A DNA stretch of 64,000 nt, from NCBI GenBank assembly GCA_951406725.2, contig OX597816.1:96658001-96722000 (forward strand), read 5' to 3'. Positions 6,500 to 51,859 of the stretch are shown here, piece after piece. Within the stretch, counting starts at the first letter, position 1. Every line of letters begins with the position of its first letter. The notes beneath the pieces are model-generated. The model was not told the DNA's origin. It ran no database searches and worked only from the letters and a program-made list of their open reading frames with translations. This DNA is from Octopus vulgaris (lineage: Eukaryota). The position numbers and the translations under genes were made by a program.

Positions 6500-6686
6500 A
6501 ACTTAAATGTTGAAGTGAATCGAACGGCTTTTGTGTGTTTCTTAAATGGCTTACAAACACCTTCCACGCTGCAATTGTATATATATATATATTCTTATTT
6601 CATTATCTATAGTCCCCTATACTTGATGTCTGTTTCTGTACTGTCCCCCTCATCCTTCGCCTTGGAGGCAAATAAAAGCTATCATT

Positions 6687-6897
6687 GGCGAGTTGGCAGA
6701 ATCGTTAGCACGTTGGACGAAATGCTTAGCGGTATTTCGCCCGTCGCTCCGTTCTGAGTTCAAATTCTGCCGAGGTTGACTTTGCCTTTCATCCTTTCAG
6801 GGTCGATAAAATAGGTACCAGTTGAACACTGGGGTCGATGTAATCGACTCATCTCCTCCCCCAAAATTGCTGCCCTTGTGCCAAAATTTGAAACCAT
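6687..6897 (+). mobile_element. tRNA-derived SINE with a MetaSINE-like central domain
   Basis: A-box TGGCAGAATCG, B-box GAGTTCAAATT, core GCCTTTCATCCTTTCAGGGTCGATAAAATAGGTACCAG and (TTA)n tail. The family recurs in the window. Confidence 0.75.
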
Positions 6898-7707
6898 TAT
6901 TATCGTTATTATTGCATGTGTATAAAACACAAGTACATGTGTGAATGTGCACGTGTGTGTTTATCTGTATGTTCCCGAAGACAAGTTTATCATATAACAT
7001 TATTTTCAGCCACGGACATTTAGAGGGACGATCGATTTTTAACAGTCACGGTACCATACTTGACTGGTACTATTTTTATGATCCCAGAAGCATAAACAGG
7101 AAAAAACAGATCCCAGAAGTATCGAAAATCAGGTCTGTGGAAAGATATACTTGAATATTACATACACGACATTTTGTCCACCACGGTACCGATTCTGGCA
7201 AAACATAATCCTTGTATTTTATAGATGTAGTCCTAGGTGTACACAAAGAAGGTATTAAAGACCTTGATTCTGATTTGCAGAAAAAGAGCTGATCTGGGAC
7301 TAAACCAACAATGCCACTGTGTGTGTGCATGCGCGCGCGCATGTATATGTTCTCCCAAATGACAAGATACCTAACGTAACATTTAGTCATTTTATAAGCC
7401 AAGCACCAAGTATCGCAACTCTATAACTAACAATTCTATCTTACAGTGGAATGACTACTCCCATCTAACGTAGTAATTAATGTACATTGCCACAAGAACC
7501 AGATCTAAATGTATCTATCTACGGTACACTATCATCATTCTCATCATCATCATCATCATCATCATCTTCACCATTATTTCTATATACATACATACTCACG
7601 TGTATGTGTGTCTGATGTTTAAACTCTACATATGTATGTAGGTGTATATATATACATATAAATATATACATTTACATTATATATATATATATATAAATAT
7701 ATACATT

Positions 7708-7751
<44 letters not shown>

Positions 7752-7991
7752 TATACATTTACATATATTAATCAATATAGGGTGGCAAAAAAATTTTGTA
7801 GAATTCTTTTGCCACCAGCGGCCTAGTAGGAAAAAATTAAATAGTCATAAACCATTTTTACGTTCAACATCACAATCAAGGAACGGCCATAATAGGCCAT
7901 TCACCTACTAGAAATAACAGCCAAAAGCTTTAACCGCAAAATAACATTAATACCGTAAACCAGGAGAAAATTGAAAAACTTTTACCCTGTA

Positions 7992-8098
7992 ATTTCTTAG
8001 ACGATGCACCGTTTCATCTACCGTTTAATGGTAAACTAACCTGATTAAATTAAATCAAGCCAATCCACCATAGGCCCTTAGACTCATCAGTAAGAAAT
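7992..8098 (-). ncRNA. Type I hammerhead ribozyme, copy 1 (predicted cleavage between 8000 and 7999)
   Basis: ATTTCTTA CTGATGA GTCTA...TAGAT GAAA CG GTGCAT CG TC|TAAGAAAT: 8-bp stem I, canonical CUGAUGA and GAAA core, GUC triplet. Confidence 0.92.
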
Positions 8099-8475
8099 AG
8101 CCAAATCGGGACAGATATTTTTCACGAGGCATTCCTCTTGCTGCCTCGGCAGTATCTGACCTAAAATTTTCAAATCGTCGCACTCGCGCCAAATTTATCG
8201 GCAGCAAATGAACCACCGATTCCGTTACGGAACTAACCAGAAAATTCATAATTAATCAATATAGGGTGGCAAAAAAATTTTGTAGAATTCTTTTGCCACC
8301 AGCGGCCTAGTAGGAAAAAATTAAATAGTCATAAACCATTTTTACGTTCAACATCACAATCAAGGAACGGCCATAATAGGCCATTCACCTACTAGAAATA
8401 ACAGCCAAAAGCTTTAACCGCAAAATAACATTAATACCGTAAACCAGGAGAAAATTGAAAAACTTTTACCCTGTA

Positions 8476-8582
8476 ATTTCTTAGACGATGCACCGTTTCA
8501 TCTACCGTTTAATGGTAAACTAACCTGATTAAATTAAATCAAGCCAATCCACCATAGGCCCTTAGACTCATCAGTAAGAAAT
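8476..8582 (-). ncRNA. Type I hammerhead ribozyme, copy 2 (cleavage between 8484 and 8483)
   Basis: Identical to copy 1. Confidence 0.92.
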
Positions 8583-8959
8583 AGCCAAATCGGGACAGAT
8601 ATTTTTCACGAGGCATTCCTCTTGCTGCCTCGGCAGTATCTGACCTAAAATTTTCAAATCGTCGCACTCGCGCCAAATTTATCGGCAGCAAATGAACCAC
8701 CGATTCCGTTACGGAACTAACCAGAAAATTCATAATTAATCAATATAGGGTGGCAAAAAAATTTTGTAGAATTCATTTGCCACCAGCGGCCTAGTAGGAA
8801 AAAATTAAATAGTCATAAACCATTTTTACGTTCAACATCACAATCAAGGAACGGCCATAATAGGCCATTCACCTACTAGAAATAACAGCCAAAAGCTTTA
8901 ACCGCAAAATAACATTAATACCGTAAACCAGGAGAAAATTGAAAAACTTTTACCCTGTA

Positions 8960-9066
8960 ATTTCTTAGACGATGCACCGTTTCATCTACCGTTTAATGGT
9001 AAACTAACCTGATTAAATTAAATCAAGCCAATCCACCATAGGCCCTTAGACTCATCAGTAAGAAAT
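8960..9066 (-). ncRNA. Type I hammerhead ribozyme, copy 3 (cleavage between 8968 and 8967)
   Basis: Identical to copy 1. Confidence 0.92.
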
Positions 9067-10115
9067 AGCCAAATCGGGACAGATATTTTTCACGAGGCAT
9101 TCCTCTTGCTGCCTCGGCAGTATCTGACCTAAAATTTTCAAATCGTCGCACTCGCGCCAAATTTATCGGCAGCAAAAGAACCACCGATTCCGTTACGGAA
9201 CTAACCAGAAAATTCATAATTAATCAATATAGGGTGGCAAAAAAATTTTGTAGAATTCTTTTGCCACCAGCGGCCTAGTAGGAAAAAAATTAAATAGTCA
9301 TAAACCATTTTTACGTTCAACATCACAATCAAGGAACGGCCATAATAGGCCATTCACCTACTAGAAATAACAGCCAAAAGCTTTAACCGCAAAATAACAT
9401 TAATACCGTAAACCAGGAGAAAATTGAAAAACTTTTACCCTGTAATTTCTTATATATATATATATATATATGTATGTATATATATACATATATATATAGA
9501 GAGAGTGTGTGAGTGTGTGTGTTTGTGTGTGTATGTATGTGTGTGTGTCCATGCGTGCGTGCGTGCGTGAGTGAGTGCGTGCGTGCGTGAGTGCGTGCGT
9601 GCGTACGTAAGGTGTTCAGACTATATCGCCTTGATATTCAACATAGTTGGCAAAACGAATCAAAACAACAATAACGAAAATGACAAAAGGGTGAGAATAA
9701 ATAGTACAGGTGAAAGAAAATACTGAAGAGGCTTAAAATTTTGTCAAAATTTAAATAGAAATAGCTTAGAAAATTATAAAATAGCATCGTGAGTGAAATG
9801 ACTTCTAGAAAATATTCTTAATAAAGGTCATGAATTACATTTCATACCGAAAATTGAAAAACCGAGCACAGCACTTTTCAATTAGGAAGGTGACAAGAAA
9901 ACATAGATTAGAAAATGTAGTAGGACAAAAAGATTATATATATATATATGTATGTATGTGTGTGTGTCTGTGTGTGTGTATATAGATATATATGTATGTA
10001 TGTATGAATGTATGTATGCATACATATATCTATAGATAGATAGATAGATACATGCATACATAATACATACATAGACATACAGACAGGCAGACAGAGAGAC
10101 AGATAGATATATTAA

Positions 10116-10265
10116 GCGCAGACGTGGCTGTATGGTAGGAACGTTGCTTCCCAACCACAGTACTCCAGGTCCAGTCCCACTGCATGGCACCTTTGGCAAG
10201 TGTCTTCTAAGTCAAAAGTCTTGCAAGTGGATTCGATAGACGGAAACTAAACGAAGCCCGTCCTA
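10116..10265 (+). mobile_element. tRNA-derived SINE head (family B)
   Basis: GTGGCTGTATGGTAGG...TTCCCAACCAC...GGTCCAGTCCCACTG...GGCAAGTGTCTTCT followed by microsatellite. The family recurs in the window. Confidence 0.7.
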
Positions 10266-10269
10266 TATT

Positions 10270-10347
<78 letters not shown>

Positions 10348-10848
10348 AAGATAGATAGATAGATAGACATACAATGGAACAAAAACGCAATAGAGGACAA
10401 TAAAACATTCGGTCAGATAGACGATACAAAGGCGGACAGGAAAAACAGCAATTAGGACAGGGGGAAAGGGACGTGTCATTTGTGGCCTTCTTTCTTCAGT
10501 CAAGTTACCAGATGTCCTTACAGTTTCGGGCAGTTACAATTGAGACTGTTAAAAAAAGTCTAAGCTAAGAGTATTAGATTTTTTTGTAAGTAAGTTAGCG
10601 ATTGTGTACAGCAGCAAAGACAAAAGCGGAGAACATGATGCACAATTACAAATACAAACAACAATAATATAGCAACAAGTGTCTTTCGACTGAGGACGAT
10701 TCCTATTGAGCTGGCATGTATGAAGTGAAAGCCTAAAAGCAAGAACATAGGAGATGGGCATAAGGGGTATTAGCGATCGGCAGTCAGGCCAAGAAATAAA
10801 GATCATGGCTGGTTGGACGCCGGTCACACACACACACACACACAAACA

Positions 10849-41844: not shown

Positions 41845-42680
41845 CCATCATCATCATCATCATTTAACGTCCGTTTTCCATGCTGGCATGAGTTGGTCAG
41901 TTTGACTGAAAACTGGTAAGCTGGGAGGCTGCAACAAACTCCAGTCTGATTTGCCATAGTTTCTACGGCTGGGTGCCCTTCCTAACGCCAATCACTCTGA
42001 TAGTTTAAAGGGTACTTTTACGTGCTGCTGACACGGGTGCCAGTTGCGTGACACCAGTATCTGTCACGACTATGATTTCACTTGGCTTCATAGGTCTTCT
42101 ACTCAAGTACAGTATATTGCCAAAGGTCTCGGTCGTTTGTCACTGCCTCCTTGGAACCCAACGCTCGAAAGGTGCATTTCACGTACCACCGGCATAGGTG
42201 CTAGTTACGTGACACCGGTATCACCCACATTACCTCCGTGAGGCTCAACGCTCGAAAGGTGTTTTTTACGTGGCACAGGCAGGAGTGCTATTTACGCCAC
42301 ACCTGCATCGGCCACATTGCCTCGGTGAGGCCCAACGCTCGAAAGGTGATTTTTACATGCTACCAGCACGGGTGCCAGTTACGTGACACTGGCATCGGCC
42401 ATGACTATGATTTCACTTGGTTTGACGGGTCTTCTCAAGAGCACGGCATATCGCCAAAGTCTCGGTCACTAGTCATTGTCTCCGTGAGGCCCAACGTGAA
42501 TATCATGCTTCACCACCTCGTCCCATATATTCCTGGGTCTACTTCTTCCACAGGTTCCCTCCACAATTAGAGATCAGCACTTCTTTATACAGGTGCCCTC
42601 ATCCATATGCATCACATGACCATACTAACGCAGTTGTCTCTCTTGCACACCACATCTGATGCCTCTTATGTCCAACATTT
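41845..42680 (-). mobile_element. RTE LINE 3' end with internal tandem repeats
   Basis: The ORF end (GRSRPRNIWDEVV) and the (GAT)n tail match 54830-55720. Confidence 0.75.
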
Positions 42681-50900: not shown

Positions 50901-51859
50901 ATTAATTAGATAAATTAATAAATATACGTAAATAATCTTGTAAAGTATGAAATATCTTAATAAATGTATTCTTGTTTAAAAATAAGATACAATTATATGC
51001 ATGTTTGTATGTATATATGTGTATGTGTATACATATGCATGTGCATACATGTATCACTGTGGTTTCCCCTAAGCTGCACAACAACTGGTGTTGGTTCATT
51101 TACATTAACACACTTCTTCACCCAAAATGTAAAAGTTCGTGTAAGATCCTTCTTAGCTTAATGGATAAACACTTTACTGGCAGTCACAACTCACTCAGAC
51201 TTTTGGTATAAGAAACACAATCATTAATAGAATTCCATCTCTTATTTGATGGCTTTGTTTAGTTTTATAGCACCAAAAACTGGGATGACAACGATCACTA
51301 TTTTTTTTCTGATGAGTGTAGTCTGACAAACTAATAACTTGTGTGAAACCAACAGGTAAGATCATCAGAAATGGATCTATAATCCAATATACCTTGATCA
51401 ACACACACACATGCACAGGCACACACACACACACACACACACACAAACATACTGACACACACACACAAGATATTCAAAGTTGTGACAAATTGATTTCTGC
51501 GCTTTGAAAAAAATAAACTTTACAGCTTTAACTATTTTTCTACTCTCTATACACCCAAACACATATATCCTCAATCCATGCAAGTATGGAAAATGTGATG
51601 TAAAATTATAATACATAAGTCTTACCCTCAAGATGTTGAATCATGTTTCAAATTGCATTTTAATAACTCCCCCAAAAGAATATGCATCCAGAACATGCTC
51701 TTGTCTGCTTTTGCTATCTTGTGGTATGCCTGCCCTCCCACCCCAAGCACCTGTACCAGAAGTCCCTATCCTCTGCCATCCTTTGGTTGTCTCTCATGAA
51801 CATTTCTAAAGGCTTAGCACCATCCCCACCCTTACTTAAGGTTTATCACCTATGTAAGG

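Follow-up and report, generated by a model that had tools for sequence, protein, structure and literature searches.

Structure of the array

The window examined in this study is a 64,000-nt stretch of the Octopus vulgaris genome (contig OX597816.1, positions 96,658,001 to 96,722,000, forward strand; designated contig C3 below). Direct reading of the sequence revealed a minus-strand array of 1,686 nt, composed of 485+484+484+233 nt (Table 1), as in an initial annotation of the window, which had parsed it into three cleavage-to-cleavage monomers and a 233-nt partial. TRF described the array as 3.5 copies of period 484 (99%). The GC content of the repeat is 0.35-0.38. Positions within a unit are counted from the first base 3' of the predicted ribozyme cut (U1), and unit 3, with U1 at 8483, is the reference unit U.

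On the plus strand, four copies of CTGTAATTTCTTA are found in the array, ending at 7999, 8483, 8967, and 9452. The first three are followed directly by GACGATGCACCG and the fourth by (TA)n. Read on the minus strand, all three internal junctions have the form ...CATCGTC / TAAGAAAT, with the cut between the two parts; the fourth boundary has nothing upstream of TAAGAAAT, which merges into (TA)n. The array had been proposed to stop at the ribozyme cut, and its 5' end indeed lies 0-2 nt from the predicted cut. The ambiguity attributed to the last TA was also confirmed: the first TA of the unit merges with the flank, and the end falls at U1-U3. The array is 99.8% uniform; its units are separated by three variants, each present in one unit only, and a rare A allele at U94 occurs in every piece. 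No unique target-site duplication is readable at the window array, where both flanks are of the (TA)n type. No ORF of at least 130 aa was present among the ORFs listed for positions 6501-10500 of the window, and no telomerase-like RT/GIY-YIG ORF was found in the element.

Elsewhere in the window, an 87-nt tandem repeat (2.8 copies, 78% matches) was detected at 42157-42401. Isolated CTGATGAG words at 51309 and 52193 (plus strand) lie outside the array and are probably due to chance.

Table 1. Features of the retrozyme array and its flanks (window positions; hammerheads and cuts are predictions).
Feature	Position	Strand	Basis
Imperfect (TA)n flank, 3' (priming) side	7645..7766	.	Sequence read, TRF
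Complete insertion of 1,686 nt: non-LTR retrozyme present as a solo B arm, with no ORF-bearing part seen	7767..9452	-	TRF, sequence read
Site B, U231-236: 14-bp hairpin U184-217, then CTATATTGATTAAT; 3' end of window insertion at 7767	7764..7816	-	Family 3' ends
3' partial unit, U1-233, terminating at priming site B	7767..7999	-	Sequence read, family 3' ends
Site A, U131 = 7869: hairpin U98-119, then CTTGATTGTGAT; read through at this locus, repeated in every unit	7869..7902	-	Family 3' ends
Type I hammerhead copy 3, predicted cut between 8000 and 7999	7992..8098	-	Rfam, core motif, pairing (predicted)
Unit 3, 484 nt, reference unit U	8000..8483	-	Sequence read
Type I hammerhead copy 2, predicted cut between 8484 and 8483	8476..8582	-	Rfam, core motif, pairing (predicted)
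Unit 2, 484 nt; U193 A>T	8484..8967	-	Unit comparison
Type I hammerhead copy 1, predicted cut between 8968 and 8967	8960..9066	-	Rfam, core motif, pairing (predicted)
Unit 1 (5'-most), cleavage-to-cleavage, 485 nt; extra T near U164 and U275/276 A>T	8968..9452	-	Unit comparison
Insertion 5' end at U1-U3, first bases past the predicted GUC cut; of helix I only the 3' strand present	9450..9452	-	Sequence read
(TA)n flank, 5' side	9453..9498	.	Sequence read, TRF

Predicted hammerhead ribozyme

The predicted type I hammerhead consists of an 8-bp helix I, a CUGAUGA core, a 5-bp helix II with a long (19-bp) hairpin extension, GAAA, a short helix III with a palindromic UGCA loop, and GUC. The Rfam model RF00163 (type I hammerhead) gave three minus-strand matches of 22 bits (E=0.09), below the gathering score of 34. 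Because these scores are sub-threshold, the assignment rests on the core motif, helix pairing, and covariation; the long insert in helix II probably pulls the score down. The general core CUGANGA...GAAA...UH was found between three helices, with helix I open-ended. In the commonest variant (146 of the 335 pattern matches, which come from fetched loci and include 19 spurious ones among the matches listed), helices I (8 bp), II (5 bp), and III (4 bp including A15.1-U16.1) are fully paired. Helix II covaries, both strands being changed between subfamilies (GTCTA/TAGAT, ATCTG/CAGAT). Compensatory changes were observed for helix I in one minor variant and in a sister family, and for helix III in that same sister family. 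The cleavage triplet is GUC or GUA across subfamilies.

In the main variants, the segment that forms helix III is its own complement, with duplex energies of -10 to -14 kcal/mol (-4.4 kcal/mol in one minor variant). A palindromic helix III of this kind has been linked to cleavage as a dimer or multimer, sparing monomer circles (PMC4209133). In monomer folding, the hammerhead fold is predicted to lie 3.9 kcal/mol above the minimum-energy fold. The distribution of genomic 5' ends described below would indirectly support self-cleavage after H17. A combined Rfam scan of four loci returned no hammerhead, though one of them was a retrozyme locus; the scan is thus insensitive. Matches to miRNAs were dismissed, being located on microsatellites and palindromes and scoring below the gathering thresholds.

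A dispersed retrozyme family

Roughly a thousand insertions make up the family of which the repeat is a member. In the 2.8-Gb genome, a 20-nt motif near U211-230 occurs 3,102 times, and a 3' end at site A (Table 1) running into (TA)n is found at 875 places, from which about 1,660 arms can be scaled genome-wide. Around 140 loci were read besides the window. A positional set, called unbiased below, was formed by 103 loci taken in positional order from the lists of 20-nt motifs and site-A ends (C1 and the start of C2); a similarity set contains 36 loci plus the window and was chosen for likeness to the window. Pattern hits at the cut were parsed separately, and natural units of seven sequence groups served as references for alignment. 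The 103 loci of the positional set hold 77 head-to-head pairs and 30 solo arms. Unit size is 484-493 nt, and arms reach a length of 10 units.

A non-LTR retrozyme has been defined as a tandem repeat in which two or more successive units each contain a complete type I hammerhead (bioRxiv 10.64898/2026.07.22.740005); three consecutive units of the window array carry one. The repeat is also non-coding and dispersed, with a GC content below 50% and no LTR. Judged from its sequence, the window array fits the definition of a non-LTR retrozyme where this is testable and appears to behave as a non-autonomous Penelope-like element (PLE). Contigs of two sequencing runs, taken as RNA by guess only, hold the repeat without flanks; contigs cannot reveal RNA ends or circles. 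At C11:31.90-31.96 Mb (L255, L256), a single retrozyme insertion is present in three identical copies that share their ends, implying a local segmental duplication or an assembly duplicate.

Two fixed 3' ends and the pairing of arms

The end singled out by the initial annotation is the variable one; it is on the 3' side that the insertions have fixed ends. Of the pieces in the positional set, 98 end at about U131 (site A), 87 at about U231-236 (site B), and seven elsewhere (inner fragments or odd ends), and one is cut off. Site A is the fixed 3' end of about half of the arms in the family. The 3' flanks are TA-like in 179 of 184 arms of this set. Both sites lie 12-19 nt downstream of a hairpin (z -3.8 and -3.5), and TTGATT is common to both.

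Head-to-head pairs were composed of one A arm and one B arm in every classifiable case (77/77 in the positional set and 24/24 in the similarity-picked set, 101/101 together; one further pair per set is cut off). The spacing from A to B, or "tail," is about 100 nt. Elements mobilized by PLEs are recognized by two alternative fixed 3' ends, one at each end of inverted insertions, and by head-to-head, 5'-truncated arms in AT-rich or microsatellite targets; both features were found here. The two fixed ends, one per arm, read as a Penelope-like tail signature. Internal priming of reverse transcription had been suggested initially and is supported by the fixed 3' ends at U131 and U231-236. The main feature, absent from that annotation, is that there are two fixed priming sites, one for each arm. 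We consider PLE-type two-site priming highly probable on the basis of these ends.

Fold-back or self-priming was rejected as the origin of most inverted pairs, as the arms terminate at different fixed sites. In 24 of 77 pairs the A arm is the longer one by over 20 nt, and only 26 of 77 have 5' ends no more than 20 nt apart, which also speaks against fold-back though the latter count is above chance. This excess of close ends probably comes from joining via hairpin or palindromic segments. Twin priming of the L1 type with abutting arms was likewise rejected: six and four of 77 pairs were seen, vs about five each by chance. A recurrent inversion joint from about U271 to the cleavage site, via a CTTATA microhomology, was noted at L137, L143, and L150, in subfamilies with a 6-nt insertion.

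Distribution of 5' ends around the predicted cut

A histogram of ends on the unit had been expected to show a sharp peak at the cut. No such peak was observed in the positional set, where the 5' ends of only two of 184 arms fall at U481-3. A shoulder was found inside the cut. The 5' ends of 45/184 arms lie at U4-40, giving 47/184 for U481-40 vs about 17 if ends were uniform (first-site rate ratio 3.7, p=4e-8). Stop rates per 1000 nt were 1.15 for U41-80 and 7.37 for U1-40; past the cut, two zones of 40 nt each had rates of 1.42 and 0.49. The shoulder is one-sided, spans 1-40 nt inside the cut, exceeds the flanking zones about 5-6-fold, and appears at the first site met. Both arms stop in the shoulder zone in 15 of 77 pairs (Fisher p=1e-7), in every case at the first site. 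Among arms reaching U40, 40/149 (~27%) stop by U481, roughly 30 above background, or about a fifth. At least one junction is crossed by 109 of 184 arms. Stop ratios at the second and later sites were 1.7 and 0.7; the later-site excess was 1.22-fold (8 stops, p=0.35) in the unbiased set and 1.70-fold (18 stops, p=0.03) when the sets were pooled without the window.

A hot spot driven by sequence would recur at each pass. This was not observed, so the shoulder is read as run-off from RNA ended at the cut. We infer that copying ran off an RNA whose 5' end lay at the cut, with subsequent trimming and microhomology joining, in about a fifth of the arms. The use of cleaved templates within the family is accordingly graded here as probable, judging from the genomic ends. 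The U1-40 segment contains a hairpin, and head-to-head microhomology is somewhat higher there (4.6% vs 2.7% elsewhere); both may shape the exact joints. The earlier proposal that the DNA was copied from RNA cleaved in vivo gains support at the level of the family (7.4 stops per 1000 nt vs 1.15 and 1.42, and three palindromic joins at the cut, described below); for multi-unit arms the excess is weak (1.2-1.7-fold). First-site stops also differ between sequence groups, with 22/53 arms in a GTA-type group (L046-like) vs 1/17 and 0/6 in two GTC-type groups, possibly reflecting unequal efficiency of cleavage or circularization.

Exact ends at the predicted cut

The genome was searched with a pattern that requires TA before an end at the cut; a hand tally resolved its 28 matches into 18 true arm ends (15 loci) and 10 internal variants. 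A control pattern at U175 gave five matches (one internal, three copies of one duplicated locus, and one other end), i.e., two independent ends, and one at U392 gave a single internal match and no ends; these controls are imperfectly matched, being stricter for GTA-type subfamilies, which template the TA sought (GTC-type ends are 7/18). Perfect palindromic joins with both arms starting at U1 were found at three loci (C14, C20, C21). In one of these, L253, a 623-nt A arm is joined to a 1,714-nt B arm that consists of three units and a B partial, like the window array. About 0.004 loci of the L253 type are expected by chance. One variant at this locus is common to the two 5'-most units and missing from the other two full units, which is what one linear multimer would give; against this reading, the shared variant is a single site and arm-to-arm conversion is possible.

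With about 1,660 arms in the genome, roughly four (counting within 3 nt) to six (within 5 nt) multi-unit arms are expected to end at the cut by chance. At least nine were found, including the window array (detection is incomplete), at least three of them in microhomology joins. The window end is therefore not beyond chance when taken alone and becomes informative only through the population data. That it represents run-off and not chance is, in our judgment, somewhat favored; chance is a real option here given the weak later-site excess (1.2-fold, p=0.35; 1.7-fold, p=0.03).

PLE families and sister retrozymes

Two abundant ORF-bearing PLE families, with ORFs of 811 aa and about 1,311 aa, were identified in the genome. 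Each family terminates at a pair of sites in (TA)n, spaced by about 42 nt in one and 55-60 nt in the other, and their readable inverted pairs have one site per end (6/6 and 3/3). A C-terminal GIY-YIG-like region with weak Pfam support follows a Cx4CxxC motif in both families, an arrangement that fits the description of Neptune/Nematis (PMC8557442). No sequence similarity to the repeat was seen in the two PLE families compared, and no homologous pLTR was found among them.

The 811-aa PLE (L235, L236; C25:4.97 Mb and C8:63.66 Mb) is very abundant in near-identical copies, with a tandem period of ~4.0 kb and 3' ends ~42 nt apart; a pattern search found no hammerhead core in its 3' region. At L066 (C1:63.846 Mb), a retrozyme pair adjoins the 3' end of an 811-aa PLE, and one (TA)n tract is common to both. 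The 1,311-aa PLE (L237, L238; C19:14.37 Mb and C1:212.44 Mb) is abundant and has a ~4.6-kb period. Its 3' region contains a hammerhead-like motif with the variant core CTGATGCG, a GTCAC/GTGAC helix, and GAAA, about 125 nt before the first of the two fixed ends, and this order of motif and ends matches that of the retrozyme.

Two sister retrozyme families (L117 2442-3091, L240-L252, L267-L270), ~70-75% identical to the unit, have the same A and B ends in (TA)n. Their helix III is perfectly palindromic (CTATGCATAG), one of them has a U4-to-C core variant, CCGATGA, and copies mostly hold fewer than two units. No attached PLE ORF was found at 13 and 4 loci of the two families. The 74%-identical sister family, together with a third family recovered by a generic hammerhead pattern, was considered as the partner PLE and rejected, both being further retrozymes. 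Another dispersed hammerhead-like family, CTGAGGAGACA...GAAACACTGCAGTGTC, accounts for ~30 of 76 generic-pattern matches (e.g., C3:1.5-14.8 Mb). It is clustered near the start of C3 and includes one tandem pair 237 nt apart (C23:44402462/44402699).

Nature of the template

Junctions are crossed without a gap within 5 nt in 344 of 348 cases among all loci aligned; of the four exceptions, two come from aligning a diverged sister family. On this ground, imprecise jumping from one cut monomer to the next was rejected; seamless jumps are compatible with the data. Where a multi-unit arm ends at the cut, a linear multimer cut at its 5' end makes the simpler template, since a circle would be paired to cDNA while it was being copied and its ribozyme could not fold. 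The template of the window array was thus rather likely a linear multimer and not a circle, provided that its end is a run-off. Of the two sources originally offered, a circle copied for about 3.5 turns or a cleaved multimer, the cleaved multimer fits better and a circle stopping at the junction fits less well. Private or rare variants are fixed in 12 of 25 loci with three or more full units, and most loci are uniform across units and arms. Uniformity and private variants are explained more simply by a monomer circle, and an unsampled uniform donor would look alike, leaving this evidence mixed. Both template types, circle and linear multimer, probably occur in the family.

The main alternative for the window array, PLE-type priming at site B on a monomer circle that was copied for ~3.5 turns until a stop fell at the cut by chance, is unlikely in our estimate. 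It accommodates the gap-free crossings, the confinement of 75 of 95 within-locus substitutions to a single unit, the presence of own variants in all units and both arms at L108, L102, L091, and L106, and the rare U94 allele in all pieces of the window array. Helix III stays palindromic across subfamilies, an arrangement said to spare monomer circles (PMC4209133), retrozyme circles have been shown in other animals (PMC7229834), and the four to six multi-unit ends expected at the cut by chance also suit this account. The double exact end of L253 is unexpected under it, and a single monomer circle as the sole template is excluded for mosaic loci in which one unit carries the 6-nt subfamily insertion (L095, L111) or three variants are arm-specific (L055). 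A circle might instead have been rolled until the enzyme stalled at the ligation junction, or the circle might have reopened there, as the initial annotation proposed first. The pooled 1.7-fold excess at later sites is compatible with a weak block at each pass, but a stall predicts a similar rate at each pass, contrary to the ~27% at the first site and the ratios of 1.7 and 0.7 later, and would still require a separate linear class; we hold it to be improbable.

Marginally less improbable is the insertion of a shorter arm (e.g., a single unit and the partial, starting at the cut) that later grew by unequal crossing-over, in which case copy number would be uninformative on the template. Variants shared periodically at other loci (units 3/6 and 5/8 of L057, units 1/4 of L072) suggest block duplication after insertion or in the donor. 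Against such growth in the window array, its three variants are all confined to single units in an otherwise uniform array, and multi-unit arms are usual in the youngest loci (58/62 arms, in a set picked for full units). An assembly artifact at the (TA)n tract, affecting the boundary or the copy number, is very improbable. None of the public contigs searched bridges either boundary of the window array, and N gaps adjoin the element at some loci (L095); on the other side, the window contains no N, the ends match positions fixed throughout the family, and the junction of site A with (TA)n is also present in sequencing data from other studies (runs X5 and X10, with loose (TA)n ends at 7868/7869).

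Proposed mechanism and significance

The following model starts from what was directly observed: the anatomy of the insertions, that their 3' ends are fixed at two sites, that A and B arms are strictly paired, that 5' ends are in one-sided excess inside the cut, and that junctions are read through seamlessly. The array would be transcribed, and partial hammerhead cleavage would yield linear pieces and probably circles too. A PLE protein would bind the RNA at the two hairpin-plus-TTGATT sites, and the enzyme, probably a dimer, would nick both strands of a (TA)n tract. One subunit would prime at A, 131 nt past the cut, and the other at B, ~233 nt past the cut, on opposite target strands. The two cDNAs would grow toward the RNA 5' end and be joined head to head after trimming of 0-40 nt or via microhomology; a solo arm would represent one cDNA joined straight to the target. 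For about 20% of the arms, the template would already end at the first cleavage site, being a cleaved linear monomer or a terminal piece; the remaining arms would be copied from continuous RNA, circular or in the form of an uncut multimer.

For the window array itself, it is about an even call that the solo site-B arm was written by a PLE-like RT as run-off from a linear multimer cut at its 5' end and uncut at three internal junctions. For the family, we lean cautiously toward reading the insertions as a thousand-event in vivo footprint of a dimeric PLE that always uses two RNA start sites on two strands, with about a fifth of the templates being linear and hammerhead-cut and the rest circles or uncut multimers of up to ten units. 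The value of the data lies in this family-wide map of ends, the single array end of the window being weak evidence alone. How retrozymes return to the genome and what role hammerheads have in PLE retrotransposition have been called open questions (PMC7229834; bioRxiv 10.64898/2026.07.22.740005; PMC11167929). If true, the model would provide direct genomic evidence that animal retrozymes rely on PLE machinery for their movement and that their templates are shaped in vivo by hammerhead cleavage; paired priming, and not self-priming, would account for the tails of PLEs and for their head-to-head inversions. The family offers a short RNA with two defined start sites and a defined cut, together with a large, young set of insertions.

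Comparison with known systems

Mobilization of metazoan non-LTR retrozymes by a PLE RT acting on circRNA has been proposed from co-occurrence and pLTR similarity (Cervera and de la Pena, 2020, PMC7229834; Li et al., bioRxiv 10.64898/2026.07.22.740005). The octopus family resembles these elements in its non-coding tandem repeats with a type I hammerhead per unit, low GC, and dispersed high copy number; no LTR, PBS, or PPT was seen, and PLEs co-occur. It differs in the 19-bp hairpin extension on helix II. Its unit of 484-493 nt is above the 170-400 nt given in PMC7229834 and inside the 51-972 bp of bioRxiv 10.64898/2026.07.22.740005. The link to PLEs is drawn here from insertion anatomy, vs co-occurrence and pLTR similarity in those two studies, whose text as consulted describes no fixed 3' ends, head-to-head pairs, or 5'-end distributions. 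More generally, the literature consulted, mostly open-access main texts without supplements, held no mapping of retrozyme insertion ends and no strict A+B rule. The supplementary model figure of PMC7229834 and the tables of bioRxiv 10.64898/2026.07.22.740005 could bear on novelty, and older PLE papers on tails may already imply A+B pairing.

The PLE protein of Poseidon PAc has been described as cutting and extending both strands of AT-rich DNA and was modeled as a dimer, the tail being the stretch between two internal RT start sites on the RNA (PMC11167929). Cleavage was unnecessary for this PLE in vitro, and no reads ending at the cut were found (PMC11167929); the octopus 5' ends, in contrast, appear to record the ribozyme cut. 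The PLE tail is known as a 30-40 bp extension, often present at one end only (PMC8557442, PMC3846280). The octopus family shares with C-terminal GIY-YIG PLEs a pair of internal RT starts that follow a type I hammerhead, a preference for AT-rich or (TA)n DNA as target, truncation at the 5' side, inverted arms in head-to-head order with one end bearing a tail, and microhomology junctions (PMC8557442, PMC3846280). The octopus pairs fit two separately primed cDNAs, and neither self-priming (PMC3846280) nor nuclease resolution of the tail (PMC8557442). Unlike GIY-YIG PLEs, the octopus retrozyme has no ORF, its tail is ~100 nt and not 30-40, and its arms reach 10 units.

In L1 twin priming, a head-to-head inversion results from two priming events, one per target strand. 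The octopus pairs differ in that both priming sites are fixed, the arms overlap in sequence, and the 5' end of one arm does not abut the priming site of the other. Processing of the R2 5' end by a ribozyme offers another parallel, in which the ribozyme and the enzyme class are different; in octopus, a minority of arms end at the cut.
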